From the NCBI GenBank assembly GCA_001775835.1, contig MEYP01000001.1:7732-43431 (forward strand): a stretch of 35,700 nucleotides of DNA, given 5' to 3'. Shown here piece by piece: positions 3,913 to 35,667 of this stretch. Numbering within the stretch: the first letter of the stretch is position 1; each line of letters opens with the position of its first letter. This stretch comes from Candidatus Azambacteria bacterium RIFCSPHIGHO2_02_FULL_52_12. GTDB lineage: Bacteria; Patescibacteriota; Minisyncoccia; GWC2-36-17; WO2-46-25. The position numbers and the translations under genes were made by a program. The notes beneath the pieces are model-generated. The model was not told the DNA's origin. It saw only the letters and a program-made list of their open reading frames with translations, and did not search any database.

Positions 3913-3919
3913 CTCGAAT

Positions 3920-3953
3920 CTTAGGTTTCATGTTACAAGTTTCACGTTTCAGG
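3920..3953. repeat. Solo right arm of palindrome family D (GTTTCAT words)
   Basis: CTTAGGTTTCATGTTACAAGTTTCACGTTTCAGG. Its complement shares TGTAACATGAAAC with the left arm at 5612-5648. Confidence 0.55.
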
Positions 3954-4102
3954 ACACTGTGGATAATGTTTTGCTTGTTTGTTGTTTGTCTATAGCGTAT
4001 AATGGTGCTAGGTAAGAAAAGGTCGAGGGTATGTTTCATAAACCTTACAAGCTTGGGGCTTATGAGACCTCTACGATTAACAGCTTGTTATCTCATGAAA
4101 TT

Positions 4103-4654: not shown

Positions 4655-4682
4655 TATTTTTCCTGTCTGACTGTACTCGAAT

Positions 4683-4717
4683 ATCGGACTTCCAGAAATG
4701 GAAGTCCGATGCGTTTT
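4683..4717 (+). terminator. Hairpin terminator/attenuator after the pilin gene
   Basis: ATCGGACTTCCA GAAA TGGAAGTCCGAT (12-bp perfect stem) followed by GCGTTTT. Confidence 0.6.
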
Positions 4718-4817
4718 AGGGCATTATTTCAAATTGTACGTCTAGCGAGCTATAGCAATGCTGATGTACAATGTTCAGAGAGGTGATTTGTTTGTACGCG
4801 TTGTTATACACGGGGTG

Positions 4818-4826
4818 TGATATACT
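4818..4826 (+). promoter_or_regulatory. Extended -10 box (TGaTATACT) 6 nt upstream of the pilD ATG
   Basis: TGATATACT, then gtatgt, then ATG (4833). No Shine-Dalgarno sequence in between. Confidence 0.4.
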
Positions 4827-4832
4827 GTATGT

Positions 4833-5603
4833 ATGACAGTTTTTTTTATTTTCATCTTCGGGCTTCTCATCGGCAGTTTTCTGAACGCGGTCGTCTATCG
4901 TCTGGAGGTCGGCGGATCTATCGTCACCCAGCGCTCGCGGTGCCCCCGGTGTTTGCATGTGTTGTCGTGGTGCGAGCTTATTCCGGTTGTCAGTTTTGCC
5001 GTCCAGCGGCGTAAGTGTCGCGCGTGCAAACAGCCCATATCTTGGCAGTACCCGGTCGTGGAGCTTGCCGCGGGTACGCTGTTTTCCTGGCTCTTTTTTT
5101 TGTTTCCCGACGCGCACCCGGCTTATTTTCTCTATTTATTTTTTACCGCGAGCGGACTTTTGGTCATCTTCATTTTTGACCTGAAACATTATATAATACC
5201 CAACAGGGTCCTGTATCCGCTGACCGCCGCCGCGTTGGCGTACGCTCTTTTTACCAACGGGTTTTCACGGGAATTCGGCTATCACGCGCTCGCGGCATTT
5301 CTGGCTTCAGGGTTTTTCCTGCTGTTGTATCTGGTATCTGAAGGAACATGGATCGGCTTCGGGGACGTGAAGTTCGCTGTTTTCATGGGATTTTTCCTGG
5401 AACCATGGCTGACGCTGGTCGCCCTTTTCATCGCTTATTTTGTCGGGGCGCTCGTCAGCAGTGTCGTTCTGCTTTTAAAGAGAAGGGGACTCCAGAGCGA
5501 AATCCCATTCGGGCCGTTTCTCGTGCTAGGGACGCTCGCCAGCTTCGCGTATGGTAGCGAGCTCATCAACTGGTATCTGCATATTAATATTTTGTTGCTG
5601 TAA
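4833..5603 (+). CDS. pilD: Prepilin peptidase (A24 family) PilD
   Basis: N-terminal CPRC...CRAC zinc motif. Polytopic. Catalytic Asp contexts FDLKHYIIPN and GFGDVKF. Confidence 0.9.
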   Translation: MTVFFIFIFGLLIGSFLNAVVYRLEVGGSIVTQRSRCPRCLHVLSWCELIPVVSFAVQRRKCRACKQPISWQYPVVELAAGTLFSWLFFLFPDAHPAYFLYLFFTASGLLVIFIFDLKHYIIPNRVLYPLTAAALAYALFTNGFSREFGYHALAAFLASGFFLLLYLVSEGTWIGFGDVKFAVFMGFFLEPWLTLVALFIAYFVGALVSSVVLLLKRRGLQSEIPFGPFLVLGTLASFAYGSELINWYLHINILLL

Positions 5604-5611
5604 ATCGTACA

Positions 5612-5699
5612 CGTTATGAAACATGAAACCTGTAACATGAAACATAAGATTCGGGCTTTGAGACGCTTGTTTTATGCTTCATGTTTCACGTTTCATGAG
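5612..5699. repeat. Imperfect palindrome of 7-nt words, family D (CATGAAA/GTTTCAT)
   Basis: Left arm ATGAAAC ATGAAAC CTGTAAC ATGAAAC, 17-nt loop, right arm ...GCTTCAT GTTTCAC GTTTCAT. Overlaps the first 28 codons of the next ORF. Confidence 0.75.
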
Positions 5700-6200
5700 A
5701 AAGGTTTTACGCTGATTGAGATTCTCATATCCATCGCCATCATCGGCACCCTGTCTTCTGTGGTTATGGTCAATATAGGGTTCGGGAACCGCCAGCAAAA
5801 TCTTCTCCGCGCCGCCCAACTGCTCGCGCTTGACATCCGCCGGGCGCAGAACCTTTCGCTGGCGCCCACCGATTCCCCAACGTGTGTTTACGGGTTGAAC
5901 ATAAACTCCGCAACCGGCTATTTTGTATATTTTGACAGAGATCAAACTTGCGCCAATGGACATCGATATGTCGCGGGCAGTCCCTCGATTGCCATCATTG
6001 ACAATCCCGGCATCACCCTTAAAAACAGCATTACCATAGATGCTCCCTTCAATCAGGACATCGCGTTTGAAGCGCCCGAGCCGATCACCTATATCAATGG
6101 AGCAAAAGACAGCGCGGGATTTACCATAACTCTGCGCTCTCCCGATAACACAACCAAGACGGTGACGGTTAACCGATTCGGGCAAGTGGAAATAAACTAG
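5616..6200 (+). CDS. Minor pilin/pseudopilin (GspH/FimT-like) with a long leader
   Basis: ...FHEKG|FTLIEILISIAIIGTLSSVV, followed by AAQLLALDIRRAQ as in GspH/FimT. Leader is 30 aa from ATG 5616, 23 aa from ATG 5637, 13 aa from TTG 5667. Confidence 0.75.
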   Translation: MKHETCNMKHKIRALRRLFYASCFTFHEKGFTLIEILISIAIIGTLSSVVMVNIGFGNRQQNLLRAAQLLALDIRRAQNLSLAPTDSPTCVYGLNINSATGYFVYFDRDQTCANGHRYVAGSPSIAIIDNPGITLKNSITIDAPFNQDIAFEAPEPITYINGAKDSAGFTITLRSPDNTTKTVTVNRFGQVEIN

Positions 6201-6299
6201 CTTTCAGCTTCATTAGCTTTTAGCTTATAGGAATGCAAAACAAAATACAAAAATCAAGAATTTCTCTAAAAGCTAATGAAGCTAACAAGCTGAAAGCTA
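6198..6299. repeat. Imperfect palindrome of 7-nt words, family B (second copy)
   Basis: TAGCTTTCAGCTTCATTAGCTTTTAG (6198-6223) versus the complement of 6266-6299, which is identical except for one extra 8-nt word AGCTTGTT. ATG 6233 lies in the loop. Confidence 0.8.
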
Positions 6300-6757
6300 G
6301 TAAGGGTTTCACCCTCTTGGAGAGCCTGATCGCCATCGCCGTCTTCACCGTCGGCATTTCAACGGCCATGACGGTCATCTCCACGTCGCTCTCCGTCGGC
6401 ACGCGCACCAGAGACAAGATCGTCGCGTCGTATCTTGCGCAGGAAGGCATCGAAGTGGTGCGGAGCATCCGCGACAACAACTGGATTGACGGAGATGCCT
6501 GGGACGCGGGCATTGCAAGCGGATGCGTCCAATGGGACAGTGCGGACGTTGATACAGGATGCTCCGCCGGTTCCGGTTTGATTTTTTATCCGTTAGCCAC
6601 GCCGCCTGCGTATAGGGCAATCGCGGGCACAACCAAATTTTCGCGCAGCATTACCGTGCAATCCATATCGGCGGATCAGATACAGGTTACCTCGGCTGTC
6701 AATTGCGGGCTCAACTGCAGCGTGTCGCTATCGGAATACTTATATAATTGGAAGTAA
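6233..6757 (+). CDS. Minor pilin (PilV/GspI-like)
   Basis: ...KASKG|FTLLESLIAIAVFTVGIS, then YLAQEGIEVVRS as in PilV/GspI. 25-aa leader. Confidence 0.75.
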   Translation: MQNKIQKSRISLKANEANKLKASKGFTLLESLIAIAVFTVGISTAMTVISTSLSVGTRTRDKIVASYLAQEGIEVVRSIRDNNWIDGDAWDAGIASGCVQWDSADVDTGCSAGSGLIFYPLATPPAYRAIAGTTKFSRSITVQSISADQIQVTSAVNCGLNCSVSLSEYLYNWK

Positions 6758-6759
6758 GA

Positions 6760-6862
6760 ATCATGAAACACGCAACATGAAACCTGAAACATATCATCAA
6801 AAACCTGAAGCAAAAAAGAAGCAACCCTTGTTTCATGTTTCATGTTTCATGTTTCATGAAAG
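6760..6862. repeat. Imperfect palindrome, family D
   Basis: ATCATGAAACACGCAACATGAAACCTGAAAC ... four tandem TGTTTCA words (6829-6856). About 90 percent identical by eye to 7357-7462. Confidence 0.8.
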
Positions 6863-7355
6863 AGGCTATTCCCTCATCGAGCTCTTGGTCGCCATCGGCA
6901 TCTTTGCCACGGTGGTCGCCATCATGTCGGGCATGTTCATGACGTCCCTGCGGGGTCAGAAGAAGGCGGTTACCGTGCAGAACGTCGCGGATAACATACG
7001 GTACGCTATGGAAATCATGAGCAAGGAGATACGCATGGGAAGCAATTTTAATCCGATCGGCGCGACCGATCTGCAATTTAAATCCAACATGCCTAATCGC
7101 AATGGCGCGAACGTTGAATTCAGCTTGCAGGGCGGACGGATCATGTTCGATGATGACACTGGCGCTCTGCCCGCCGCGGACTCCATCACTTCGGCAAACG
7201 TGGCGGTCACCGCCTTGAATTTTTCCTTGTATCCGACGACCGGCACGCAAAAGAGAGTTCTGATAAGCATACAGGCGGCGTCCGCGGGAACGGCAAGCGA
7301 CGCGGCAACATCGATTAACGTGCAGACCACCGTTGCGCCGCGTATCATCCAATGA
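6777..7355 (+). CDS. Minor pilin (PilW/GspJ-like); alternative start ATG 6849
   Basis: ...FHERG|YSLIELLVAIGIFATVV, then NIRYAMEIMSKEIR. ATG 6849 would give a canonical 6-aa leader MFHERG. Confidence 0.75.
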   Translation: MKPETYHQKPEAKKKQPLFHVSCFMFHERGYSLIELLVAIGIFATVVAIMSGMFMTSLRGQKKAVTVQNVADNIRYAMEIMSKEIRMGSNFNPIGATDLQFKSNMPNRNGANVEFSLQGGRIMFDDDTGALPAADSITSANVAVTALNFSLYPTTGTQKRVLISIQAASAGTASDAATSINVQTTVAPRIIQ

Positions 7356-7373
7356 AATCATGAAACACGCAAC

Positions 7374-10023
<2,650 letters not shown>

Positions 10024-12343: not shown

Positions 12344-12417
12344 CGCGGGGTGGAGAAGTCTGGTATCTCGTTGGTCTCATAAGCCAAAGATCGCAGGTTC
12401 AAATCCTGCCCCCGCAA
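12344..12417 (+). tRNA. Initiator tRNA-fMet (CAU)
   Basis: CGCGGGG acceptor with a C1-A72 mismatch, D stem GAGA/TCTC, anticodon loop CTCATAA, T arm GCAGG TTCAAAT CCTGC. Close to the E. coli initiator sequence. CCA is not encoded. Confidence 0.85.
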
Positions 12418-12454
12418 CATGCAGAAAGGAGATGCCGCCGCTTGGCGGATTGCC

Positions 12455-12526
12455 GCCAGCATAGCTCAGTGGTAGAGCGAGCGTTTCATAAGCGCTAGGT
12501 CGCAGGTCCGATCCCTGCTGCTGGTA
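12455..12526 (+). tRNA. tRNA with CAU anticodon (elongator Met or lysidine-dependent Ile2)
   Basis: Cloverleaf GCCAGCA / GCTC..GAGC / AGCGT TTCATAA GCGCT / GCAGG TCCGATC CCTGC / TGCTGGT, discriminator A. Confidence 0.8.
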
Positions 12527-12546
12527 CTTGAAAACGTGTCACCCGC

Positions 12547-12622
12547 GGGCCCGTGGTCTAGCCTGGTCTATGGCGCCTCCCTGTCACGGAGGAAATCGCC
12601 GGTTCAAATCCGGTCGGGCCCG
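12547..12622 (+). tRNA. tRNA-Asp (GUC)
   Basis: Acceptor GGGCCCG/CGGGCCC, anticodon arm CCTCC CTGTCAC GGAGG, T arm GCCGG TTCAAAT CCGGT, discriminator G. Confidence 0.85.
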
Positions 12623-12693
12623 CAGGCGACATGTTTGAAAGAATGCGAAGCGAGATTTGCCGACATTGTTCATTTCAAAAAAGGAGGTGGGGC

Positions 12694-13449: not shown

Positions 13450-14601
13450 ATGTCCGAAAAAAATCATTACATAGAAGTGCAATCTTCGGAAGAACAGAAG
13501 CTTCGAGAGATGCTTGCGCACAAAAATGATGCCGATTCAAAACGGCTTGTCCGTTTTCTTTCACTTCCCGATCTTTCGCGCGATCCTTCGAGCCCCCTGT
13601 CGGAGCTTGTTTCACGCATCAAAAAAATCGAGCGGTTTTCGCATTTCGACGAGATAAAGGCGCCGGAAATCGTCCGGGCTGATATCAGTTTTGATCTGTT
13701 CAATTTTTCCCCCGATCACCCCGCTCGAAAATCAACAGACACTTATTTTATCGATGAAGAGTATATCTTAAGAACGCATACCACGGTCATGTGGTATTAC
13801 TATCTGCATGATGAGGCGATTAAAGAAAAGATCAGGAACAAAGAGTCTGTGGGGTCGCTTTCTTACGGCAAGGTATACCGTAAGGACGAGATAGACCGCA
13901 ATCACATGAATGTTTTCCATCAGATAGACGGATGGTATCTCACGCCAAAATCAGAGAAGGTCATTACCGCTGATGATCTGAAAGAAGTATTGATTGAAAT
14001 AGCTCATGCAGTTTTCGGGAACAATGTCGTCTATAGAATCAATCCCGACACTTTCCCTTATACCAACCCAAGTCTCGAAATGGAAGTGCAGATTGACGGG
14101 AGATGGGTCGAGGTTTTGGGGTCGGGCGTCGTGCAGGGAAACGTTCTTGAACGCCTTGGTGTTGACCCGGCCGTGTACAACGGATGGGCGTTCGGCTTCG
14201 GCCTTGAACGGCTTGCGATCATCAGCATGACGCTTCCCGATATCCGCCTGCTCTGGTCCGACGACCCGCGGATCAAAAAACAGCTGCGCCTGGGGAATGT
14301 TTATGTTCCCGTGAGCAAATATCCGCCGATTACGAGAGACATTTCGTTCGTGGTGTCGGACGATTTCATTCCCAATAATTATTTCGACCTGATACGGGAT
14401 TTGGGCGGCGAACTGGTTGAGGAAGTGAAGCTTGTCGACAAGTATGAAAACCCCGAAAAATTCGGCGCCCGCAAAACAAGCTATACCTACCGCATCATCT
14501 ATCGCAGCAACGACAGGACACTGCTTTCGGGCGAGGTGGATAGTATCCAGAAAAAAATATACGAGGAAACCGCGAAGCAATTTCACGCGGAGTTGAGATA
14601 A
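13450..14601 (+). CDS. pheS: Phenylalanine--tRNA ligase, single-chain type (class II catalytic core + C-terminal FDX-ACB domain)
   Basis: PheS motifs SPDHPARK, LRTHTT, GKVYRKDEID..H...FHQIDG, GWAFGFGLERLAI. The last ~100 aa (nt ~14299-14598: SKYPPITRDISFVV...KTSYTYRIIYRS.DRTL) fit the ferredoxin-fold anticodon-binding domain. Confidence 0.9.
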   Translation: MSEKNHYIEVQSSEEQKLREMLAHKNDADSKRLVRFLSLPDLSRDPSSPLSELVSRIKKIERFSHFDEIKAPEIVRADISFDLFNFSPDHPARKSTDTYFIDEEYILRTHTTVMWYYYLHDEAIKEKIRNKESVGSLSYGKVYRKDEIDRNHMNVFHQIDGWYLTPKSEKVITADDLKEVLIEIAHAVFGNNVVYRINPDTFPYTNPSLEMEVQIDGRWVEVLGSGVVQGNVLERLGVDPAVYNGWAFGFGLERLAIISMTLPDIRLLWSDDPRIKKQLRLGNVYVPVSKYPPITRDISFVVSDDFIPNNYFDLIRDLGGELVEEVKLVDKYENPEKFGARKTSYTYRIIYRSNDRTLLSGEVDSIQKKIYEETAKQFHAELR

Positions 14602-15687: not shown

Positions 15688-16089
15688 ATGGATAATTCGG
15701 TTGCGGTTCCCCCTGATTGCATTGTCGGTGTCGAGCACGAAGCGAAGAGCGGTCCTTTTTGGGCCGGAAACGACCGATTGGGATTGGCGCTTCTAACGTG
15801 CTTGGACAAAAAGCCGCCGATCCCGCTTATTTTACAGCAAGGAATCGCCCGATACATAAACACGCCGATGGTCGAAAAAGCAAAGGTCATCGAGAAGCAC
15901 CGGCAGGAAGGCGTTCCGCTTGACCTTGAAGAAGTCTGTTTTCAGGCGGCAAGGATCATAAAAGAAAAAAACTGGAAGACGTGTTTCGTGCTTGCGCACA
16001 AGAGCGATGTTGCGGCGTGCAAGCGGATTCTGCACGGGTATGGAGTTCTCGTGACAGGAGAGATTGTTGTCAATCCAAATGTTTGGTAG
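15688..16089 (+). CDS. Divergent third member of the same family
   Basis: SD GAGGTGA before ATG. Retains the core layout (LDLEEVCFQAARII...CFVLAHKSDVAACKRILHGYGV) but not the C-terminal SLQWYTRGP segment. Confidence 0.4.
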   Translation: MDNSVAVPPDCIVGVEHEAKSGPFWAGNDRLGLALLTCLDKKPPIPLILQQGIARYINTPMVEKAKVIEKHRQEGVPLDLEEVCFQAARIIKEKNWKTCFVLAHKSDVAACKRILHGYGVLVTGEIVVNPNVW

Positions 16090-16090
16090 C

Positions 16091-16138
16091 AAGGGTCCCG
16101 TTGTGCTCGAAAATGAGCCGCGGGACCCTTCTTTTTTG
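16091..16138 (+). terminator. Rho-independent terminator
   Basis: AAGGGTCCCG (16091-16100), loop, CGGGACCCTT (16121-16130), then TCTTTTTTG. Confidence 0.75.
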
Positions 16139-16140
16139 TA

Positions 16141-16169
16141 TGGACAAGCAGCTTATTTTTTGCTAAAAT
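16141..16169 (+). promoter_or_regulatory. Candidate gyrB promoter (extended -10)
   Basis: TGGACA, 17-nt spacer whose last 3 nt are the TGc of an extended -10, then TAAAAT (16164-16169), 8 nt, ATG 16178. Confidence 0.45.
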
Positions 16170-16177
16170 TGAGCTAT

Positions 16178-18286
16178 ATGGCAAAAGGTGAAAAGGAGCA
16201 GAAAACACAGAAAAATCCTCGCTATTCGGCGGAGGATATTTATGTATTGGAGGGGCTTGAACCGGTCAGAAAACGTCCCGGCATGTACATCGGCTCCACG
16301 GGCGTCGACGGCCTGCACCACCTGGTGTGGGAAATTTTTGACAACTCGCGCGACGAAGCGCTTGGCGGGTATGCGACCGAAATAGAAGTGGCGCTTCTGC
16401 CCGATAATGTGGTGCGTATTGCGGACGATGGGAGAGGCATTCCCGTGGACATACATCAAAAGACAAAAGTGTCCGCGCTTGAAACGGCGATGACGACGCT
16501 TCATGCCGGCGGGAAATTCGGCGGAGAGTCGTACAAGGTTTCCGGCGGCCTGCACGGTGTGGGCGCTTCGGTGGTGAACGCGCTGTCGTCGTGGCTCAAA
16601 GTGGAAGTGCATAAAGACGGCGGCAAATGGGTGCAGGAATACAAGCGGGGCGAACCGAAAGCGAAAGTGAAGAAAGTGGAAAGCTCGAAGCTTCATGGGA
16701 CAATCACCACGTTCACGCCGGATCCGACTATTTTCTCCGACATCACGTTTGACTTTCAAAAGATCAAAGACCACCACCGCCAACAGGCGTATCTGGTGAA
16801 AAAATTACACATCAGAATCATTGATGCGCGGGAATATGCCGGGAAGATAGACGATTCCGTGTATTATCTCCGGGAGCTCGGCCTGCCGGTGCCGTCATAT
16901 TCGTTTTATTTTGAAGGCGGCATCGCGTCGCTGGTGAAATATCTGAACAAGGATCAGGAAGCTCTGCACGATACGGTGTTTTACACGGAAAAAGAACGTG
17001 ACAAGGTCGGGGTGGAGGTTGCTCTGCAATATGTGGCCGACATCACCACGAAAGAAATGAGTTTTGCCAATACCATCCCCACGGCAGAAGGCGGAACGCA
17101 TCTGACCGGTTTTCGCGCGGCGCTGACCAGAGTGTTGAACGACTACGCGCGCAAGAACGGGCTTTTGAAAGACGCGGACGACAACCTGTCGGGAGAAGAC
17201 GTGAGAGAGGGCATGACCGCCGTCATTTCCGTGAAAATCGTCGAGCCGCAATTTGAAGGGCAGACCAAGGGCAAGCTCGGCTCGCAGGAGGGGCGCACCG
17301 CGACGGAAGCGGTGGTGGGGGATTCGTTCTCCGATTTTCTGGAAGAGCACCCGCAGGACGCGCGCAAGATTCTGGAACGGTGCATCTTGTCGCAGAAAGC
17401 CCGCAAGGCGGCGAAAGCGGCCCGCGAAACGGTCCTGCGCAAAGGAATCCTTGACGGCCTGACCCTGCCCGGCAAGCTGGCCGACTGTTCTTCGCGCAAG
17501 GCGGAAGAATCGGAGCTGTATATTGTGGAAGGAGATTCCGCGGGCGGTAGTGCCAAGCAGGGCCGCGACCGCAGGTTTCAGGCGATCCTGCCGCTCAAAG
17601 GCAAGATATTGAATATCGAGCGGGCGCGTTTGGATCGTATCTTGTCCTCTTCGGAAATCCGCGCGCTCATCATCGCTCTTGGCACCGCCATCGCCGACGA
17701 ATTCGATATCGCAAAACTGCGCTATCACCGCATCATCATCATGACCGATGCCGACGTGGACGGCTCGCATATCCGTACGCTTTTGCTGACCCTGTTTTAC
17801 CGCTATTTCCCCGCGCTCATCGCCAAAGGCCATATCTACATCGCCCAGCCGCCCCTGTATAGAATTCAAATGGGAAAAAAGGTAGAATACGCGTATACGG
17901 ACAAGACAAAAGAAGCTGTTCTTGCCCGCTGGAAGGCGGGCAAACAGGAAGTCGAAAGTCAAAAGTCAATCCGCCAGTCGGCGGACAAAAGTGCGAGTGA
18001 AGAGCCGGAAGAACCGGCAGAGGAGGACTTGTCCCCCGAAGCTTTAGCGAAGGGGGAGAAAGTCAAAGGAGTTTCCATCCAGCGCTACAAGGGTCTTGGC
18101 GAGATGAACGCCGAACAGTTGTGGGATACGACGATGAACCCGGAAAAGCGGATGATGATGCAAGTGACCATCGCGGACGCGCAGGAAGCGGACAAGATAT
18201 TCGATATTTTGATGGGCGCCGAGGTGGGTCCCCGCAAGCGCTTCATCCAGACCCACGCCAAAGACGTTAAGAATTTGGATGTATAA
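16178..18286 (+). CDS. gyrB: DNA gyrase subunit B (start chosen at ATG 16178; the ORF from 16064 would run through the terminator)
   Basis: YSAEDIYVLEGLEPVRKRPGMYIG, GHKL ATPase motifs, Toprim EGDSAGG, QRYKGLGEMN. Confidence 0.95.
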   Translation: MAKGEKEQKTQKNPRYSAEDIYVLEGLEPVRKRPGMYIGSTGVDGLHHLVWEIFDNSRDEALGGYATEIEVALLPDNVVRIADDGRGIPVDIHQKTKVSALETAMTTLHAGGKFGGESYKVSGGLHGVGASVVNALSSWLKVEVHKDGGKWVQEYKRGEPKAKVKKVESSKLHGTITTFTPDPTIFSDITFDFQKIKDHHRQQAYLVKKLHIRIIDAREYAGKIDDSVYYLRELGLPVPSYSFYFEGGIASLVKYLNKDQEALHDTVFYTEKERDKVGVEVALQYVADITTKEMSFANTIPTAEGGTHLTGFRAALTRVLNDYARKNGLLKDADDNLSGEDVREGMTAVISVKIVEPQFEGQTKGKLGSQEGRTATEAVVGDSFSDFLEEHPQDARKILERCILSQKARKAAKAARETVLRKGILDGLTLPGKLADCSSRKAEESELYIVEGDSAGGSAKQGRDRRFQAILPLKGKILNIERARLDRILSSSEIRALIIALGTAIADEFDIAKLRYHRIIIMTDADVDGSHIRTLLLTLFYRYFPALIAKGHIYIAQPPLYRIQMGKKVEYAYTDKTKEAVLARWKAGKQEVESQKSIRQSADKSASEEPEEPAEEDLSPEALAKGEKVKGVSIQRYKGLGEMNAEQLWDTTMNPEKRMMMQVTIADAQEADKIFDILMGAEVGPRKRFIQTHAKDVKNLDV
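17950..17970 (+). repeat. In-frame heptamer words (AGTCGAA AGTCAAA AGTCAAT) inside gyrB
   Basis: Same word as the ligA array. Lies in an acidic insertion (QEVESQKSIRQSADKSASEEPEEPAEED) before QRYKGLGEM. Confidence 0.6.
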
Positions 18287-18287
18287 C

Positions 18288-18938
18288 ATGCGAAAACTGT
18301 TTTCATTATTCGTCCTTGGATTTATGCTTACCGGCGTTTTTTCGTTTGCTTTTGGTTCGTATGCTCAAGGGTGCAACGGTGCGCCGGATTGTTTTGATTT
18401 GAGTACGGTCAATCCGCTTGGAACCAGTGAAGTTACCGTTATTGTTTGTAATGTCGCCCTGTTCCTCCAGGTAAAACTCATGCCGCCTATCGCGGTGCTC
18501 ATGGTTTTGTGGGCGAGCTTTTTGTATCTGACGTCGGCGGGGAGTCCCGGCAACGTAACGTCGGCAAAACAGATACTGGTATACACCATCATCGGCGCGG
18601 GCATTCTCATCATCGCTCCCGCGCTGATAGCGCTGGTGATAGACATATTTGGCAAAAGCACGACAGTCACCACCGCCACGTCGACCTGTAGTACATTAGC
18701 GTCCGCTACGACACTCACCGCGGTATTCGCCAATCTCATCAATTGGTTCTCGTGGTTCCTGGCTCTCGCGTCGGTTGCGGCGGGGCTGTATTCCGGATTT
18801 TTGTACATGACATCAAGCGGCGACCCGCGCAAAGCTGTCATGGCAGGAAGCATATTGTTCTATGCGGTAATCGGGATAGCTGTTGCTATCTTGGCGTTCA
18901 GCATCCTCGCCCTTATCAAGGGGTTTATTGTGCCTTGA
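18288..18938 (+). CDS. Secreted/membrane protein with two tandem VirB2/TrbC-like (T4SS pilin-like) modules
   Basis: Signal peptide MRKLFSLFVLGFMLTGVFSFAFGSYA. Two homologous two-helix units: ASFLYLTSAGSPGNVTSAKQILVYTIIGAGILII and SGFLYMTSSGDPRKAVMAGSILFYAVIGIAVAIL. Confidence 0.6.
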   Translation: MRKLFSLFVLGFMLTGVFSFAFGSYAQGCNGAPDCFDLSTVNPLGTSEVTVIVCNVALFLQVKLMPPIAVLMVLWASFLYLTSAGSPGNVTSAKQILVYTIIGAGILIIAPALIALVIDIFGKSTTVTTATSTCSTLASATTLTAVFANLINWFSWFLALASVAAGLYSGFLYMTSSGDPRKAVMAGSILFYAVIGIAVAILAFSILALIKGFIVP

Positions 18939-29667: not shown

Positions 29668-29911
29668 AGTGGAGGCCTGCCCAGCACCTTTCGCTTCAGC
29701 AAAATGGTGCGGGGTGGACGAATTTCATTCCGGTAGAGCAACTTCCAGAGCCCAACGCCTTCCGGCGACGACTCGCGAAGCGCACGCTAATGATCTGCGA
29801 CCGCGTTGTGTACTCATAGAGGCATCTTAGGCGTTGGGCAAGCACGTGTTCTTCTCCGCCTGCCTCCATAAGCGGCACAAACGGACACAGGAAGTTGTAT
29901 TACCGGATCAT
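29668..29911 (-). promoter_or_regulatory. Structured ~240-nt leader (or independent RNA) upstream of dnaE
   Basis: Closing helix 29729-29745 / 29890-29906 (14 of 17 positions pair). 10-bp perfect pair 29750-59 / 29830-39 crosses the 9-bp helix 29816-24 / 29861-69. No SD before the dnaE ATG. Confidence 0.4.
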
Positions 29912-29917
29912 GCTACA

Positions 29918-29945
29918 ATCCTAACACACAAAAGCGTTGTTTCAA
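29918..29945 (-). promoter_or_regulatory. Candidate promoter directly after the upstream stop codon
   Basis: Minus strand: TTGAAA (29945-29940), 16 nt, TAGGAT (29923-29918), tgtagc, ATG 29911 (opens only ATG ATC CGG TAA). Confidence 0.45.
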
Positions 29946-29954: not shown

Positions 29955-31403
29955 TTAACGCACCGCTTCTCCCTCCGCATACGCATTGAGTTCGGTTTGA
30001 TTTACCGTTGCAACCTCCGCATAGACTAAGCCCAGTTTCGTAAACGCCGCTTCGGTGCTGACCCATCGTTTCTGATTGTTTTCGATAAGATACACCTTTT
30101 GGCTGGTCGAAAGCTTGATAGCTCGGACGGTGGGATACGAATCTAAAATGCTCGTGCCAATTGTTTTCACGTTCTCCCATTTGTTGTTGTAAGAGTTAAA
30201 CACCGCAAGAGAGGGGATTGGTTTTTTCAGTCCCGCCGGGGTGATGTAGTAAATCACAGAACTGCCCGCTGTTTTAACCAGTGAACCGGATCCCGGACGC
30301 ACCAACGGCGCGGCGCCGGAGAGTTCCGCATCTTCCAGCGGCGATCCTTCCTGGTAATAGTCCCGTTCTTTGGCGTTGATAATGAATACTTGGTTCCATG
30401 AGTAGCCAAACTGGGTGAATCGTTCTCCCGCAATATTCATCCATCGCTTCTCTGCAAGTCCCTGCCGCTCATCAAGCTCTTTGAGGGAGAATACGCGGGT
30501 ATCGCCGTCAGCGCGATAGAAGTCTGATGTTTTCAAGCTGTCCATGGTTTGCTGGTCGAGCGTCTTGATCTGATCCCATTTGAAATGACCATACATGGAA
30601 AAGACGGCGGGATTGAAGATATGCCTTCGGTAGCCATGCTGATTAACGATGTAGACTTTGATACCATCAGGGCCTCTCACGAGGTCGCCTTCACGAACTC
30701 CTGAAGGAAGATTCGTGGATTGGACGAAGGAAGAAGCTGAAGGCGTCGGAGCGGGAACAGGAGCAGCTGTAGGAGTCGGGGTTGGCGCGACAGAACCGCC
30801 TCCGCCACCACCGGAAGAAGGCGCAGGGGAGGGGGCCGAAGGCGCGGGAGAAGAAACAGACGACGTGAGCGTATAATTTCCGTTTGTCACGGCCGTAAGC
30901 GCATCGGCGCCCGCGCTTGCCACATTGGCATCGGTAGTCCCGCCCGCAGCGAACGTAAACGTGACCGCGGCAACACCCGGAGCGCGCGCTTTGAAACGCG
31001 CCGTCGCAAGCGTACCGCTCCCGCTGAATCCCGGTCCGCCAATGTTGGCGATCTGCGAAAACGATATGCGGCCATTTGTCGCGTCCGCCACATTCACAAT
31101 GGTCTGCGGCATAAGCGAGCCCGGCGCGATTTGCACTCCCGCAACTGTAGCATCATCATCCTGCACCTCCAAAAGCGAAGGGTTGTAGTTCAGGTACAAA
31201 ATATCAACGCCCGCCACGCCGAGTGACTGCGTATTCAAAAGCAACGCGACGGGAAAAATATCGCCCACCGTTCGGGAACCGGAGCTCGGCGACAATGAAA
31301 GAGTCGCGGCGGATGCTGGAACCGCGCGTCCCGCAAAAAGCAGGACCATTCCCGCCGCAACAAAAGAGAATATGATTTTACTTGATAATGACATGGGTGC
31401 CAT
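29955..31403 (-). CDS. Secreted cohesin-domain protein with P/S/G linker and four C-terminal ~55-aa repeats
   Basis: Signal peptide ...AVPASA|A. Cohesin-like pattern VGDIFPVALLL..VAGVDILYLNYNPSLLEV..GRISFSQI..GSGTLATARFKARAPGVAAVTFTF (nt ~30864-31307). Linker contains GGGGGG. Confidence 0.7.
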   Translation of the reverse strand: MAPMSLSSKIIFSFVAAGMVLLFAGRAVPASAATLSLSPSSGSRTVGDIFPVALLLNTQSLGVAGVDILYLNYNPSLLEVQDDDATVAGVQIAPGSLMPQTIVNVADATNGRISFSQIANIGGPGFSGSGTLATARFKARAPGVAAVTFTFAAGGTTDANVASAGADALTAVTNGNYTLTSSVSSPAPSAPSPAPSSGGGGGGSVAPTPTPTAAPVPAPTPSASSFVQSTNLPSGVREGDLVRGPDGIKVYIVNQHGYRRHIFNPAVFSMYGHFKWDQIKTLDQQTMDSLKTSDFYRADGDTRVFSLKELDERQGLAEKRWMNIAGERFTQFGYSWNQVFIINAKERDYYQEGSPLEDAELSGAAPLVRPGSGSLVKTAGSSVIYYITPAGLKKPIPSLAVFNSYNNKWENVKTIGTSILDSYPTVRAIKLSTSQKVYLIENNQKRWVSTEAAFTKLGLVYAEVATVNQTELNAYAEGEAVR

Positions 31404-32007
31404 GCGCCTTTTTCAGGAGATCTTTCCCGAAATAGGCGACATTTGAATCAATGATCGACCCTTCTTCAAACACGAACGTCATCTTTGCGGTTCCCGGCGC
31501 GCGCGCCGTAAACAGAAGCGCCGCGACAGGCCCCTTTTCCCGCATCTCCTTCAGCGGTTTCGCGAGAGCGGTGAAAAAAACATCTCCGCTTTCCTCGTTC
31601 ACCTTTACATAGGGGAAAATATCAAAAATGGAATCATCTGTTTTCAGGTACGCATCCGCGCCGTCGCCTTTTCCCGTGCGTTGTATCGCAAGCAAAAGGG
31701 GATCATAGCGCAGTACTACGTCAACTCCGGCGGCCTCTTTTCTTCCGCTGTCAAGCATAATGCGCACTATCACCGGATCTCCCGCCGCATATTCCTCCTT
31801 GTCCGCAACCAACGAGAGCGTCACCGGCTTTCCCTGTAAGGACAAGCCTCTCAACGCGCTTGTTTCACTGATATCCACCACCGCAAACGCCAACGTTACC
31901 GCAATGAGCCCTGCGGCCCCAAACCCCGCGAGAAACACAAGGGACATAAAGAACCAATTTGTCCTGCCAAACATCATCTTTTCAATTTTGCTTTTTTGTT
32001 CACTCAT
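31378..32007 (-). CDS. Membrane-anchored cohesin-domain protein
   Basis: N-terminal TM helix WFFMSLVFLAGFGAAGLIAVTLAFAV. Cohesin-like GDPVIVRIML..AAGVDVVLRYDPLLL..GDVFFTAL..VAALLFTARAPGTAKMTFVF. Overlaps the start of the next gene. Confidence 0.65.
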   Translation of the reverse strand: MSEQKSKIEKMMFGRTNWFFMSLVFLAGFGAAGLIAVTLAFAVVDISETSALRGLSLQGKPVTLSLVADKEEYAAGDPVIVRIMLDSGRKEAAGVDVVLRYDPLLLAIQRTGKGDGADAYLKTDDSIFDIFPYVKVNEESGDVFFTALAKPLKEMREKGPVAALLFTARAPGTAKMTFVFEEGSIIDSNVAYFGKDLLKKAHGTHVIIK

Positions 32008-32032
32008 AATTTCATGCTAGAGCGCTTCTTAA

Positions 32033-35000
32033 TTAATCACCAACCGACGCCCAATTCCTCGACAGCAGGCTGAAATCGAGCGCATTGACGAATCCATCCC
32101 TATTGGCATCCGCGGCGGTATCGGCAGTAAACCACTTCGGAATCATCAGCGACCAGTCGAGAGAATTGACCGTGTTGTCGCTGTTGAGATCCCCCGCGGG
32201 AAGCAGAGGGAGCACGATCGTCGCGTTGGAAGAGATAGTCGCATTTGCCGCTCTTCTCCGCAGATATGTCTGAGAGAATACCAGAATGTCATACCTCCCA
32301 CTTAGAAGCGTGATGCCGGAGGGAAGGGCAATATTTCCCGAGGTATCGGTGCGCGCGGTGAATTGGGCAACCTGTGTGGTGTCGCCGGCATTGAGAACGG
32401 TAAGCGTTACGTCTCTGTTGGACGCATTCGCCGTCCCTTCCAGCCGCACGGTGAAACGGACATTCGTCACGGTTGTCGGGACCGATGCCTGCGTAGTGGC
32501 GCTCACGCCTGAAGTCTGACTGCTCACATTTCCTGCGGCATCATAAGCGGTAATAGTGTAGGTGTAGCTCATGCCTGCAGAGAGGCCTGTGTCTTGGTAG
32601 GAGGTTTGGGCAGTCGAGGCAATCTGGCTTCCTCCGCGATAGATGCGATAGCCTGTTACCCCTACATTATCCGTGCTTGCAGTCCATGAAAGGTTGATCT
32701 GAGATGAGGATTGCGCGGTGGCGGCGAGGTTTGCGGGAGTGGTGGGAGCTTGGGTGTCGGATGAGGGCGGTGGGGCGGAGCCGAGAAGACCGACATATCC
32801 CGCGGTAGAGATGGCGAAGTCGTCGTAGTCTACGTACCTATCAGTGCCATTCAATGAGAAGGCATGATTCGAACCAATAATGACATTATCCCAACCTGGC
32901 TGCGCGTTGTAATTCACATTCGCGTATGAAAAACGCTTCACGCCATCAACCCACATTTCAGCAACTCCATCGCTTCCATTTGTATCCATTTTCATATGAA
33001 TTTCATACGCATGCCACTGACCATCGGAGCGCCTATTACTATTCGCATCAAGCGCGCCGTTCGCCATAATAGTATTCCAGCCATTACCGGACGGAGAAGA
33101 ATAATTAGGAGCTCCGCTAAAAACGACCCAAAAGTTCAATAAATCAAAACTTTTGAATTGAATCGTTGTAGCATCTTGCTGACCCAGGTCAAAATATAAA
33201 GTCTTATAATTTGACAATGAACTCCATTCAAAATCTTTTTCAAATCTCATATACCATCTCATCCAAAACTCTTTTGGAGAAGCGAGACTCAGGCTTGTGC
33301 CGCCACTATTACTAGCTGATCCATCCCCCAGCCAATGCCTCTGCCCTTTACCTCCGCCTCCCGCGGGATTATTCGCGGCGGCGGTAATTTGTTCTTTTGA
33401 ACCGCTCGCGGTGGTCCAGTTCCCGTATCCTACAAGATTGTCACAATTCACATTACTCTTGAGTAACCCCATACCCTGATCCCAATCATTACAATTATAC
33501 GTCGTAGACCAGAGAAGGCCTGAACTCGGAGGCGGTGTCGCGCTCTGCGTCGTCGCGCTTACTCCGCTTGTCTGACTGCTCACATTCCCTGCCGTGTCAT
33601 AGGCGGCAATGGTATAGGTGTAGGAGGTACCTGCGGAAAGGCCCGTGTCTTGGTAGGAAGTTTGAGTGGTAGTAGTAATCTGGCTTCCTCCGCGATAGAT
33701 GCGATAGCCTGTTACCCCTACATTATCCGTGCTTGCAGTCCAAGAGAGGTTGATTTGAGATGAGGATATTGTGGTAGCGGTGAGACCTGTGGGGATAGTT
33801 GGAGCTTGGGTGTCGGAGGGAGGGGGGGAAACGGAACCGAGAGGTCCGATATAGCCCGTGGTGGAGATGGCGATGTCGTCGTAGTCGATTGCCATGTCAT
33901 TCGGCTGGGTAACGTTTTTTGTAAGGCAACCCTTGTTACTGCCAAAAACTAAAGTCGTCCATCCAGGAGCAGTCTTGTAATCGATAGTATTAGAAGAAAA
34001 TCGTTTCACACCATTTATCCATATTTCTCCTACACCATTCGCTCCATTCGTATCCATTTTCATATGCACCTCAAACGGGTGCCACTGGCCGTCAGATATT
34101 CTATTTCCTTGCGGATCAAGCGGCCCATTAGCCATCACAGCGTTCCATCCATTCCCATCAGCAGAACTGTGGTTGCCGCTTCCATTAACCCACATATTGA
34201 CACGATCCGATGAGTACCATTCTGGAACAACAGCATGCGGAAGACCGGGATCAAAGTAAAGCCATTTGTCGGCAATAAGAGGAGTCCACATGATACCAGC
34301 CTCATATTTCATGTAGAAACGTATCCATAACTCGGGGGTAGTTGAAGGAAAAACATAACGAGTTCCGCCACTCGTATTACTCGCGTAATTTCTGTCGGTA
34401 CACAAATTAGTAGATGAAGAACTGGGAGTATAGAAATAAGTAGCCCAATGCCTCTGCCCTTTTCCTCCGCCTCCCGCGGGGTTATTTGCGGCGGCAGTAA
34501 TTTCCTCATTCTTTCCCGTATTAGTAGTCCATCCACCCCACGCAGAAAGGCTGTCACACTGGGTATTGGGATTAAGTCCCTTATTCGCATTCCAATCCGC
34601 ACAATTATACGTCGTAGACCAAAGAAGGCCTGAACTCGGAGGAGGTGTCGCGCTCTGCGTAGTGGCGCTCACGCCTGAAGTCTGACTGCTCACATTCCCC
34701 GCCGTGTCATAGGCGGAGATGGTGTAGGTGTACGCGGTGCTTGCGGTAAGGGCGGTATCTGAATAGGCAGTCTGGGCGGTGGTTGTAATCTGGCTTCCTC
34801 CGCGATAGATGCGGTAGCCGGTTACCCCTACATTATCCGTGCTTGCAGTCCATGAGAGGTTGATTTGAGATGAGGAGATGGGAGTAGCGGTGAGATTCGC
34901 GGGAGTGGCGGGAGCTTGGGTGTCGGATGAGGATGGCGGGGCGGTATAGATAATTTCAAGATAGGGGTCTTCAGAGACGCCCGCGCGTTCAAGAGAATAA

Positions 35001-35632
35001 TACTTGATGCGGCTGCTGCTTCCTTGAGGAGGGTCGTTCAAGACGTCATGGCCTTCGCGAAGAGCGAGTTTGGTAAAGCCGGTTTTGTTGATAGCGGTAA
35101 TACCGGTTGCGTTCAAGGTCCAGAATTGGTATTGAGCGGCAGAGATGCCCGTAATATCAATGCGGTTTGAGAGTTCGGCGGGGTTTGTAAGAGCGCCTGC
35201 TTGGTCAAAATCGTCTAAAATAACATCTCCATTCCCTGCTTGCGTAGAAGGGGTCACGACAATAAAGTCATTCCCGTCATTGTCGCCATTCAAAGTGTTG
35301 AAAACGCGAAGGTAAAGGCGGACGCTTGAAATCACGGCATCATCGGGAAGCGCAGAAGTATCAAAGACAAAAAAACCGCGGGCAATAAAATCGGTTGCTA
35401 TCACTTCCGCACGGGAATCCTCGAGGACAGTGGCAAGTGAAGTGCCCTGAGAGGCATTGTGGGCGCTATCCCATGAGGACGAAGACGCGCCAAGATACAT
35501 CACGTACCCATCGCTTATAGGATAGGTAATAAAGGGGGAGGTTTGGGATTCGCTTGAAAAAACCCCGCCCAGAGCTAAAACGCCAGTGATAAAGAAAAAA
35601 AGAAACAGATGTTTCAGGTAACTGAATTTCAT
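32033..35632 (-). CDS. Large secreted repeat protein: N-terminal beta-rich domain, [FN3 + ~270-aa beta-sandwich-like module] x2, FN3, Ig-like domain, C-terminal dockerin
   Basis: Signal peptide. Three FN3 units (INLSWTASTDNVGVTGYRIYRGG). Two paralogous modules (LLWSTTYNC.DW...AAANNPAGGGGKGQRHW...SDGQWH..E.HMKMDTNG). Dockerin loops DLNSDNTVNSLD and DANRDGFVNALD (nt ~32048-32194). Confidence 0.8.
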   Translation of the reverse strand: MKFSYLKHLFLFFFITGVLALGGVFSSESQTSPFITYPISDGYVMYLGASSSSWDSAHNASQGTSLATVLEDSRAEVIATDFIARGFFVFDTSALPDDAVISSVRLYLRVFNTLNGDNDGNDFIVVTPSTQAGNGDVILDDFDQAGALTNPAELSNRIDITGISAAQYQFWTLNATGITAINKTGFTKLALREGHDVLNDPPQGSSSRIKYYSLERAGVSEDPYLEIIYTAPPSSSDTQAPATPANLTATPISSSQINLSWTASTDNVGVTGYRIYRGGSQITTTAQTAYSDTALTASTAYTYTISAYDTAGNVSSQTSGVSATTQSATPPPSSGLLWSTTYNCADWNANKGLNPNTQCDSLSAWGGWTTNTGKNEEITAAANNPAGGGGKGQRHWATYFYTPSSSSTNLCTDRNYASNTSGGTRYVFPSTTPELWIRFYMKYEAGIMWTPLIADKWLYFDPGLPHAVVPEWYSSDRVNMWVNGSGNHSSADGNGWNAVMANGPLDPQGNRISDGQWHPFEVHMKMDTNGANGVGEIWINGVKRFSSNTIDYKTAPGWTTLVFGSNKGCLTKNVTQPNDMAIDYDDIAISTTGYIGPLGSVSPPPSDTQAPTIPTGLTATTISSSQINLSWTASTDNVGVTGYRIYRGGSQITTTTQTSYQDTGLSAGTSYTYTIAAYDTAGNVSSQTSGVSATTQSATPPPSSGLLWSTTYNCNDWDQGMGLLKSNVNCDNLVGYGNWTTASGSKEQITAAANNPAGGGGKGQRHWLGDGSASNSGGTSLSLASPKEFWMRWYMRFEKDFEWSSLSNYKTLYFDLGQQDATTIQFKSFDLLNFWVVFSGAPNYSSPSGNGWNTIMANGALDANSNRRSDGQWHAYEIHMKMDTNGSDGVAEMWVDGVKRFSYANVNYNAQPGWDNVIIGSNHAFSLNGTDRYVDYDDFAISTAGYVGLLGSAPPPSSDTQAPTTPANLAATAQSSSQINLSWTASTDNVGVTGYRIYRGGSQIASTAQTSYQDTGLSAGMSYTYTITAYDAAGNVSSQTSGVSATTQASVPTTVTNVRFTVRLEGTANASNRDVTLTVLNAGDTTQVAQFTARTDTSGNIALPSGITLLSGRYDILVFSQTYLRRRAANATISSNATIVLPLLPAGDLNSDNTVNSLDWSLMIPKWFTADTAADANRDGFVNALDFSLLSRNWASVGD
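32492..34927 (-). repeat. Intragenic tandem repeat, period ~1.06-1.11 kb (FN3 plus module)
   Basis: The 66-nt core AATCTGGCTTCCTCCGCGATAGATGCGATAGCCTGTTACCCCTACATTATCCGTGCTTGCAGTCCA is identical at 32621-32686 and 33677-33742, and has 2 mismatches at 34787-34852. Confidence 0.9.
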
Positions 35633-35638
35633 GCTACA

Positions 35639-35667
35639 ATCTTAGCATATGCAGGCGCAATTTCCAA
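35639..35667 (-). promoter_or_regulatory. Candidate promoter giving a leaderless mRNA for the 1199-aa gene
   Basis: Minus strand: TTGGAA (35667-35662), 17 nt, TAAGAT (35644-35639), tgtagc, ATG 35632. Confidence 0.5.

Follow-up and report, generated by a model that had tools for sequence, protein, structure and literature searches.

Patescibacteria account for much of the diversity of bacteria, and most of them are thought to be attached to other cells; the way in which their surface proteins are organized is largely unknown. How such an organism might keep a secreted protein on its own envelope is the question raised by three neighboring genes in a 35,700-nucleotide (nt) stretch of DNA (the window) from Candidatus Azambacteria bacterium RIFCSPHIGHO2_02_FULL_52_12 (contig MEYP01000001.1, assembly GCA_001775835.1). 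An earlier note, written from the letters of the window alone, had described three co-oriented minus-strand genes and had read them as a "giant" dockerin-tagged cargo protein with two cohesin-bearing anchors. The three open reading frames (ORFs) are indeed found (Table 1) and encode proteins of 1199 (gene 1), 209 (gene 2), and 482 (gene 3) amino acids (aa), which makes "giant" an overstatement for the first; its word "self-contained" likewise says too much, as it reaches beyond the ~46 kb of the genome that were inspected. The comparative analysis presented here leads us to regard it as fairly probable that the operon encodes a non-cellulosomal cohesin-dockerin system for surface anchoring, in which the secreted gene 1 protein docks through a C-terminal X module-dockerin dyad (XDoc) on the cohesin of gene 3, that of gene 2, or both.

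The dockerin lies at the C-terminus of gene 1, where the Pfam family Dockerin_1 (PF00404) matches over profile positions 1-54 of 57 and scores 39.9 bits (cutoff, 22.9). Its two calcium-loop repeats, DLNSDNTVNSLD and DANRDGFVNALD (aa 1148-1186, nt 32075-32191), had been recognized as a dockerin signature in the earlier note, and both, when read from the sequence, have D or N at positions 1, 3, 5, 9, and 12, which is the canonical pattern. The loop positions that do not vary across eight relatives are D103, N107, and D110 in repeat 1 and D126, N128, D130, N134, and D137 in repeat 2. The domain in front of the dockerin, previously called Ig-like, can be named more precisely. A profile of eight X-plus-dockerin units, consisting of the C-terminal ~150 residues of gene 1 and the matching ends of seven relatives, aligns with the XDoc of the C. 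thermocellum scaffoldin CipA (2b59_B, expectation value (E) 5.3e-9, profile positions 37-145) and with that of A. cellulolyticus ScaA (4wi0_B, E 4.3e-7), and it also matches 5k39_B (E 0.014). Because the alignments to CipA and ScaA extend over both X module and dockerin, the two C-terminal domains of gene 1 are, as judged by these profiles, an XDoc dyad homologous to the type II XDoc of clostridial scaffoldins. In clostridia, this unit fastens scaffoldins to cell-surface anchoring proteins (PMC12484212).

A candidate partner is encoded by gene 3. The Pfam family Cohesin (PF00963) matches aa 43-159 with 28.1 bits against a cutoff of 24.1, and a profile of 24 related cohesin domains matches solved cohesins, the best being the type II cohesin of ScaB (3l8q, E 2.9e-5). 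The 82 homologues of gene 3 include proteins named "cohesin domain-containing protein" at NCBI that come from Patescibacteria or Ca. Azambacteria. In the AlphaFold2 (AF2) model, aa 33-180 have a predicted local distance difference test (pLDDT) score above 90, and all of the 50 best PDB matches of this domain in Foldseek are cohesins, with template modelling scores (TM-scores) of up to 0.78 and a root-mean-square deviation of 2.4 Å. On the basis of model and profiles, gene 3 carries a genuine cohesin with the nine-stranded β-sandwich (jelly-roll) fold, as had been supposed from its sequence. The profile searches that the earlier note proposed (PF00963, PF00404, and PF00041) returned the dockerin and the gene 3 cohesin over their cutoffs, and fn3 was found as well; the lack of significant profile matches, which the earlier note had named as a refutation of its reading, thus did not occur.

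Gene 2 had been described as a transmembrane helix followed by a second cohesin. All three proteins have exactly one hydrophobic segment, which is N-terminal; it is signal-peptide-like in genes 1 and 3, and in gene 2 it agrees with the proposed helix. The cohesin of gene 2 is recognized through its kinship with gene 3: hhalign aligns it with the gene 3 cohesin family over 136 columns (probability 98.5%, E 3e-15), and BLASTP pairs the two proteins directly (E 1.8e-12). The domain is accordingly classified, from these alignments, as a divergent cohesin homologous to the family of gene 3. A word-indexed homologue search with gene 2 returned near-identical copies only, and its homologues were instead obtained from gene neighborhoods, where L013 (E 7e-21), L015 (E 2e-25), L017, and L018 each have one at the corresponding place. 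A profile scan of contigs with the alignment of these transmembrane cohesins gave four loci, with the window's own genome not among them.

Are the three genes a functional unit? Only 25 nt separate gene 1 from gene 2, genes 2 and 3 overlap by 26 nt (17 nt if the alternative ATG of other gene callers is used), no terminator-like site exceeding background is found between the three genes, and a 288-nt gap with a separate promoter-like motif precedes the next gene, dnaE. For these reasons the three genes are likely to form one transcription unit. Their arrangement is also conserved beyond the window. Eight Patescibacteria loci were compared (the window, L013/L017, L015, L018, L001, L020, L021, and L022), and at all eight a dockerin gene lies directly upstream of an anchor-cohesin gene on the same strand. 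The full order of XDoc gene, transmembrane-cohesin gene (~195-209 aa), and cohesin gene with repeats was recovered with custom hidden Markov models (HMMs) in four lineages (the window, L013/L017, L015, and L018); at L001, L020, L021, and L022, the dockerin gene is immediately 5' of the anchor cohesin. Identity across the four lineages amounts to 43-62% for the dockerin, 49-63% for the gene 3-type or wall cohesin, and 30-37% for the transmembrane cohesin. The dockerin tracks the wall cohesin more closely, in a comparison where two lineages are close and the lineages are too few to assign the dockerin its partner.

This conserved coupling has to be weighed against the possibility that the neighbors are not each other's partners. 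The XDoc of gene 1 could dock on a cohesin encoded elsewhere, or both cohesins could accept other dockerin proteins, and the adjacency of the genes would then reflect shared regulation or the ancestry of a cassette. The number and variety of XDoc proteins speak for such an arrangement, as does the fact that ~46 kb of the ~941-kb scaffold were inspected. Furthermore, the first gene of the cluster in relatives often encodes an adaptor with one or two cohesins and an XDoc (L001, L013, L015, and L020), and an adaptor that brings its own cohesins implies further dockerin proteins elsewhere. However, the dockerin gene stays immediately 5' of the anchor cohesin at all eight loci although the cohesins are only 49-63% identical between lineages, and exactly one dockerin and two cohesins were counted in the window plus a 10-kb extension. 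We therefore consider partners encoded elsewhere an unlikely explanation.

Further genes were observed beside these clusters. Upstream of the trio in L015 (positions 4361-5547), which belongs to a metagenome-assembled genome (MAG) labelled as Saccharibacteria, two small membrane-anchored genes carry a different, EF-hand-like dockerin; one encodes 292 aa (transmembrane helix, cohesin, and dockerin) and the other 92 aa (transmembrane helix and dockerin). The pair hints at a second cohesin-dockerin specificity within the L015 cluster. Adjoining the Azambacteria cohesin-dockerin cluster of L001, an FN3 protein (5896-6918, minus strand) ends in GGGGGCFIATAAYGS plus a hydrophobic tail, which resembles a C-terminal sorting signal.

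A different doubt concerns the manner in which gene 2 is held in the membrane. Its hydrophobic stretch could be a signal peptide that is cleaved, so that a free cohesin of ~165 aa would not anchor the dockerin but cap it, act as its chaperone, or compete for it. An AxA-like motif (A39-F-A41) at the end of the hydrophobic segment and the lack of any other anchoring feature are consistent with this idea, and the resulting AFA|VV site leaves cleavage possible. On the other hand, the segment, which follows a K/R-rich tail, has 27 residues and is long for the h-region of a signal peptide, and the homologues in L013 and L015 have helices of ~20 residues without an AxA site. Because of the length of the segment and these AxA-free homologues, an uncleaved signal-anchor is favored for gene 2, and a free cohesin appears quite improbable.

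The anchor of gene 3 seems to be of another kind. Between its cohesin and its C-terminus lie a linker, which is disordered in the AF2 model, and four repeats of ~55 aa; both had been noticed before, and the repeats are borne out when the copies are aligned and when an HMM of the repeat is applied. Each repeat is folded as β-β-β-α-β-α-β in the AF2 model, which is mostly confident here (means of 10-residue blocks, 62-96). In the 53 retrieved proteins that contain it, the HMM counts 181 repeats, which mostly form arrays at the C-terminus. Pfam scans of 34 separate repeats gave scattered single matches only, a comparison of the repeat profile with PDB sequences gave no solved relative, and a fold search in BFVD returned uncharacterised phage proteins only. 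One repeat matched PF05108 (EccB) with E 0.0038, which is about the level expected by chance for 34 scans and is kept as a lead only; EccB repeats resemble the wall-binding PlyCB. More informative is the context of the repeats. Several close relatives of the cohesin (P0047, P0059, P0066, P0048, P0054, and P0044) carry PG_binding_1 in place of the repeats, and repeats of the gene 3 type also end unrelated secreted proteins, for example the LamG/alginate_lyase2 protein P0038. Because PG_binding_1 stands at the same position in relatives and the same repeats terminate other secreted proteins, the region is read as a wall or envelope anchor, and by analogy with the PG_binding_1 swap the repeats most likely bind the cell wall or peptidoglycan.

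How far does this anchoring principle reach beyond the window? An exhaustive search found the XDoc unit in 337 cluster representatives (E ≤ 1e-10), nearly always at the extreme C-terminus of proteins of 150-2268 aa. The domains that precede it include fn3, Big_7, Laminin_G_3, β-helix, M23 peptidase, and cohesin domains, many XDoc proteins consist of FN3 or Ig domains only, and cohesins and an XDoc occur together in 27 of the 150 top XDoc proteins. At L013, L017, and L018, the XDoc protein itself is membrane-anchored and carries a cohesin (366-369 aa with transmembrane helix, cohesin, and XDoc). As far as these sequences tell, the cohesin-XDoc system is not peculiar to the window operon but a widespread platform of Patescibacteria with variable cargo and, elsewhere, adaptor scaffoldins. 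Proteins from other metagenomes, such as P0203 (366 aa) and P0225 (1127 aa), also bear an XDoc, and the names given to some of the cargoes are murein DD-endopeptidase (M23) or LamG-like jelly-roll protein, with Patescibacteria as the source; peptidoglycan hydrolases appear to be displayed through the same XDoc plug.

The breadth of the family also bears on the idea that no mutual binding takes place at all. The dockerin might be a calcium-stabilized terminal domain or an adhesin for glycans or host cells, and the cohesin-like β-sandwiches might be spacers or carbohydrate-binding domains. For cohesin- and dockerin-like modules outside cellulosomes, it is common that no partner has been identified (Peer et al. 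2009, cited by PMC10066038), and the dockerins of giant proteins in Omnitrophota have been proposed to be adhesins. Similarly, an essential dockerin-domain protein without a cohesin partner has been reported in a cultured Saccharibacterium (Wang et al. 2023); this protein, SEML1_0315 of Southlakia, is flanked by a hydrolase and a tRNA gene and has no neighboring cohesin, and no direct connection between SEML1_0315 and the window operon is drawn here. The conserved gene coupling, the homology over all of the XDoc dyad, a unit dedicated to cohesin binding, and the invariance of dockerin loop and helix residues across lineages all count against such a reading, and proteins combining cohesins with an XDoc only make sense for the assembly of chains. 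We hold the absence of mutual binding to be very improbable.

The cargo itself remains to be described. Gene 1 consists, in this order, of a signal peptide, an N-terminal domain, FN3, module A, FN3, module B, FN3, the X module, and the dockerin. The earlier note had seen the [FN3 + ~270-aa Cys-containing module] unit twice, followed by a third FN3, and this reading stands: Pfam fn3 matches three stretches (E 1e-28), the unit is duplicated with FN3 DNA copies that are 70-85% identical and start 1056 and 1110 nt apart, and the two modules (~267 aa) share 54% identity. Its proposal that the modules are lectin- or lyase-like agrees with their predicted fold. The AF2 model of module A (pLDDT 88.6, predicted TM-score 0.89) has as its top PDB matches in Foldseek the polysaccharide lyase (PL) family 36 alginate lyase Aly36B (6kcv, E 1.6e-8, TM-scores 0.53/0.58), the PL20 glucuronan lyase 2zzj, the PL14 enzyme vAL-1 (3gne), and Cip1 (3zyp); toward the lyase folds, E ranges from 1.6e-8 to 1e-6 and TM-scores from 0.42 to 0.58, with 10-14% sequence identity. 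The 111 homologues of the module come from many phyla and are mostly free-standing proteins of ~280 aa. PF14099 is matched by 22 of 53 family members (E ≤ 0.01, best 3.3e-9) and PF21294 (PL14) by five of the 53. Eleven residues, nine of them polar, are invariant in the family and kept in both modules (R61, R105, Y107, K123, E188, N233, D250, D252, D253, G59, and G263 in module A numbering), and H185 and H190 are nearly so. By fold and family, the modules are polysaccharide-lyase-like β-jelly rolls whose activity and substrate are putative.

Among the retrieved proteins, the combination of a lyase-like module with an XDoc was found in gene 1 only. The N-terminal domain of gene 1 has no Pfam, NCBIfam, or informative PDB sequence match and does not occur in the other retrieved XDoc proteins. 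Two matches that might suggest an enzyme name, Pfam RGI_lyase (aa 616-678) and NCBIfam "exoglucanase CbhB" (aa 599-701; 278 bits against a cutoff of 1950), both fall on an FN3 domain and are thus no evidence of enzyme identity. The least probable of the alternatives, in which cohesin-XDoc links mainly brace the envelope or build a lattice like a surface layer by tying membrane proteins to the wall layer and the lyase-like protein is a lineage-specific passenger, draws on the bridging potential of the membrane-anchored cohesin-XDoc proteins of L013, L017, and L018 and on the frequency of FN3- or Ig-only XDoc proteins, but fits poorly with a gene 1 that has a signal peptide where an anchor would be expected and whose enzyme-like modules conserve polar residues, and with M23 peptidase, β-helix, and LamG cargoes that are typical of displayed enzymes or binders.

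If the anchoring reading holds, gene 1 would be exported through the Sec pathway as a cargo with two lyase-like modules spaced by FN3 domains and an XDoc at its end. After export, the Ca2+-loaded dockerin, braced by the X module, would plug into a cohesin. On gene 3, which has a flexible linker of ~50 residues between cohesin and repeats, the cargo would be held at the wall or on the outside of the cell; on gene 2, the cohesin would sit just outside the membrane on its single transmembrane helix and keep the cargo close to the membrane. Either cohesin may be the preferred one, and in both cases the lyase-like cargo would stay on the cell and not be lost to the medium. The reading of a cargo with two anchors, first offered in the earlier note, gains comparative support from the coupling at all eight loci, the retention of the transmembrane cohesin in four lineages, and the PG_binding_1 swap.

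Several observations weigh against this picture or parts of it. The Pfam score of the gene 2 cohesin is 17.5 bits (E 0.0048, profile positions 4-118 of 139) and lies under the cutoff of 24.1. The transmembrane-cohesin gene is absent from L001. The C-terminal region of gene 3 has no Pfam match at E ≤ 1, including PG_binding_1, SLH, LysM, SH3b, and CWB2. Module A scores 20.4 bits against PF14099 (E 5e-4), under the cutoff of 29.9. β-Elimination by lyases of these families involves a Tyr, His, or Lys base and an Arg, Lys, or Gln neutralizer in the cleft, whereas the conserved residues of the window modules are defined by the family alignment only. The scan for dockerins and cohesins covered ~46 kb of a ~0.94-Mb genome, and other partners may exist. 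Finally, the pair does not look like a textbook type II pair. The marks of type II cohesins are β-flaps and an α-helix that lies between strands 6 and 7. In the compact model of the gene 3 cohesin, aa 33-180 are free of helices, and the model superposes with TM-scores of 0.74-0.78 on type I and archaeal cohesins versus 0.55-0.65 on type II cohesins; because of the missing helix and the better superposition, the pair is, in terms of the model, XDoc-like and not clean type II.

Table 1. Features of the cohesin-dockerin operon, with positions in the window
Feature	Position	Strand	Evidence
Gene 1, secreted 1199-aa cargo protein	32033..35632	-	ORF; Pfam fn3 (three) and Dockerin_1; custom HMMs for lyase-like module (two matches) and XDoc
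Gene 1 signal peptide, aa 1-28, MKFSYLKHLFLFFFITGVLALGGVFSSE	35549..35632	-	Sole hydrophobic segment, aa 3-28; cleavage inferred
Gene 1 N-terminal domain, aa 29-232	34937..35548	-	No family match
FN3 copy 1, ~aa 237-330	34643..34924	-	Pfam fn3; DNA repeat family D1
Lyase-like β-jelly-roll module A, aa 334-600	33833..34633	-	AF2; Foldseek; PF14099 below cutoff
FN3 copy 2, ~aa 606-700	33533..33817	-	Best Pfam fn3 stretch, aa 614-684; reference copy of DNA repeat D1
Lyase-like module B, aa 704-953	32774..33523	-	Alignment to module A; HMM match
FN3 copy 3, ~aa 958-1049	32486..32761	-	PDB chitinase A1 FN3 (1k85), aa 962-1045, E 9e-20; DNA repeat D1
X module, Ig-like β-domain directly before dockerin, aa 1050-1143	32204..32485	-	Profile alignment to scaffoldin XDocs (E 5.3e-9 to CipA)
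Dockerin, two F-hand Ca2+ loops DLNSDNTVNSLD and DANRDGFVNALD, aa 1146-1192	32057..32197	-	Pfam Dockerin_1
Promoter-like element: TTGGAA, 17 nt, TAAGAT, 6 nt, gene 1 ATG	35629..35667	-	Sequence; function inferred
Gene 2, 209-aa single-pass membrane protein with extracytoplasmic cohesin	31378..32007	-	ORF; homologues at same gene position in relatives
Gene 2 transmembrane helix, aa 18-44, after K/R-rich N-terminal tail	31876..31956	-	Sole hydrophobic segment, 27 residues
Gene 2 cohesin domain, aa 63-200	31408..31821	-	Pfam below cutoff; hhalign; cohesin HMM E 3.8e-22
Gene 3, secreted anchor of 482 aa (signal peptide, cohesin, disordered linker, four repeats)	29955..31403	-	ORF; AF2 model
Gene 3 cohesin domain, aa 33-180	30864..31307	-	Pfam; family profile; Foldseek
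Gene 3 P/S/G/T/A-rich linker, aa 181-236	30696..30863	-	pLDDT <50 at aa 194-228; composition from sequence
Gene 3 C-terminal repeats, four of ~55 aa, putative cell-wall-binding	29958..30695	-	Four-copy alignment; repeat HMM

Transcription of the operon may start at the first codon of gene 1. A 16-nt motif, TARGATTGTAGCATGA, occurs twice, at 35629-35644 (minus strand), where it contains the start codon of gene 1, and at 29908-29923 (minus strand) upstream of dnaE, and its number of matches was reached in none of 100 shuffles. Both sites resemble a -10 box (TAAGAT or TAGGAT) located 6 nt 5' of the ATG, with TTGGAA or TTGAAA 16-17 nt before it, and may represent a putative promoter for leaderless transcripts at gene 1 and dnaE. 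Identical copies of the gene 1 protein are present on 15 public contigs, including the 941-kb scaffold and GCA_001774035.1. An apparent short cargo of 886 aa in L002 is the same as gene 1 from ~aa 314, begins with GTG near the end of its contig, and is probably no real variant but an artifact of an assembly that broke within the repeated FN3 stretch.

The remainder of the window contains type IV pilus genes and housekeeping genes and is syntenic with a Candidatus Azambacteria MAG (identities of 83% for NusG, 81% for L11, and 70% for GatB). In the pilus cluster (1-7400, plus strand), genes for two T2SSE ATPases are accompanied by one each for a T2SSF platform protein and a prepilin peptidase and by four for N-methyl (pre)pilins; type IV pilus machinery has been implicated in the attachment of episymbionts. 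A T4SS_pilin/TrbC-VirB2-like gene (18279-18938, plus strand) comes right after gyrB and overlaps its end, and the same arrangement is seen in the Azambacteria relative L001 (1298-1981). GyrB has 1132 aa in L001 (1-1320) and contains an intein (PF14890), versus 740 aa and none in the window (16064-18286). A 383-aa phenylalanyl-tRNA synthetase (PheRS; 13450-14601, plus strand) combines a class II core with a C-terminal FDX-ACB domain and matches the human mitochondrial monomeric PheRS (3cmq/5mgu) with E 4e-57 versus 4e-35 for bacterial alpha subunits. No PheT-like ORF adjoins it, and these features suggest that the window encodes a mitochondrial-type single-chain PheRS in a Patescibacterium. Finally, a tRNA-Asp gene is tightly clustered with two genes for tRNA-Met (CAT) at 12344-12623 (plus strand).

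A cellulosome is built on a multi-cohesin scaffoldin that integrates dockerin-bearing glycoside hydrolases (GHs) acting on plant cell walls, usually together with a family 3 carbohydrate-binding module (CBM3). The window operon looks different, with one cohesin per anchor, a lyase-like cargo, and no GH or CBM domain detected by domain scans, either in the three proteins or in the remainder of the window. Its likeness to clostridial type II XDoc-cohesin pairs (CipA XDoc with SdbA, OlpB, or Orf2p; ScaA XDoc with ScaB; structures 2b59, 4wi0, and 5k39) lies in the Ig-like X module before a C-terminal dockerin with homology over both, in partner cohesins located on envelope-anchored proteins, in the adaptor scaffoldins of the window's relatives, and in a gene 3 cohesin family that is closest by sequence to the type II cohesins of ScaB. 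In contrast to the clostridial pairs, where anchoring relies on SLH modules or sortase signals, the anchors of the window use a transmembrane helix or the new repeat (PG_binding_1 in relatives) and hold a single cohesin each, and the XDoc sits on an enzyme-like protein and not on a multi-cohesin scaffoldin. The helix-free gene 3 model with its best superposition on type I and archaeal cohesins, the lack of GHs and CBM3, and a small-genome Patescibacterium as the organism set the two systems further apart.

Cohesin- and dockerin-like modules outside cellulosomes have already been described (Peer et al. 2009, cited by both PMC10066038 and PMC8542988). The operon shares with them the lack of a plant-cell-wall-degrading context, and the gene 3 model matches the cohesin of Archaeoglobus fulgidus (2xdh, TM-score 0.75) and also the cohesin-like module of Clostridium perfringens (2jh2), but differs from them by a conserved operon, dedicated anchors, the XDoc dyad, and recurrence across a phylum with swappable cargo. 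Small systems in non-classical organisms, namely the inferred cellulosome-like one of Ca. Stygibacter (Cloacimonadota, PMC8542988) and the minimal cellulosomes of C. saccharoperbutylacetonicum (PMC7157769) and Cellulosilyticum lentocellum (PMC13487519), likewise pair a few dockerin-bearing secreted enzymes with cohesin-bearing surface proteins; unlike the window with its single-cohesin anchors and lyase-like cargo, these systems combine GH or peptidase cargo with a multi-cohesin scaffoldin that has CBMs. A cluster of genes putatively related to cellulosomes was reported in the OD1 genome RAAC4, along with a dockerin-like protein and a cellulosome anchoring protein in SR1 (Kantor et al. 2013, PMC3812714). 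The RAAC4 cluster belongs to the same superphylum and is apparently of the same kind; in that paper it is mentioned in one sentence as evidence of complex-carbon degradation, with no anatomy, XDoc or anchor analysis, or cargo identity. With regard to the cargo, the β-jelly-roll lyases (PL36 6kcv, PL20 2zzj, PL14 3gne; PF14099 and PF21294) share the fold of the window modules, whose homologues are mostly free-standing secreted proteins, as enzymes usually are; they differ by sequence (10-14% identity, with the window modules below the family cutoff) and by the N-terminal Cys-containing extension of the window modules. The literature searched contained no description of the combination of XDoc dyad, transmembrane cohesin, new repeat anchor, conserved gene order, and variable cargo.

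A much bolder generalization, which we put forward as doubtful, would see in these genes a phylum-wide plug-and-display envelope system of Patescibacteria, with the XDoc on hundreds of secreted proteins (lyase-like, LamG, β-helix, and M23 murein peptidase cargoes and adaptor scaffoldins) and cohesin sockets on a transmembrane helix and a new peptidoglycan-binding repeat. Episymbionts would use it to mount glycan- or wall-active proteins against their hosts, and the window operon would be a minimal instance, accessible to experiment, of a core symbiosis machine.

At its more modest scale, the operon offers a testable hypothesis, namely that a plug of the cellulosome type and two sockets hold a lyase-like protein on the cell envelope. 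If binding proves true, XDoc-cohesin anchoring would extend far outside the cellulolytic Firmicutes and a new wall-binding repeat would be defined; small orthogonal cohesin-dockerin pairs would also become available for synthetic biology. For the uncultivated episymbionts themselves, the XDoc would then be a genome-searchable marker of the displayed surface proteome, including candidate host-directed enzymes.

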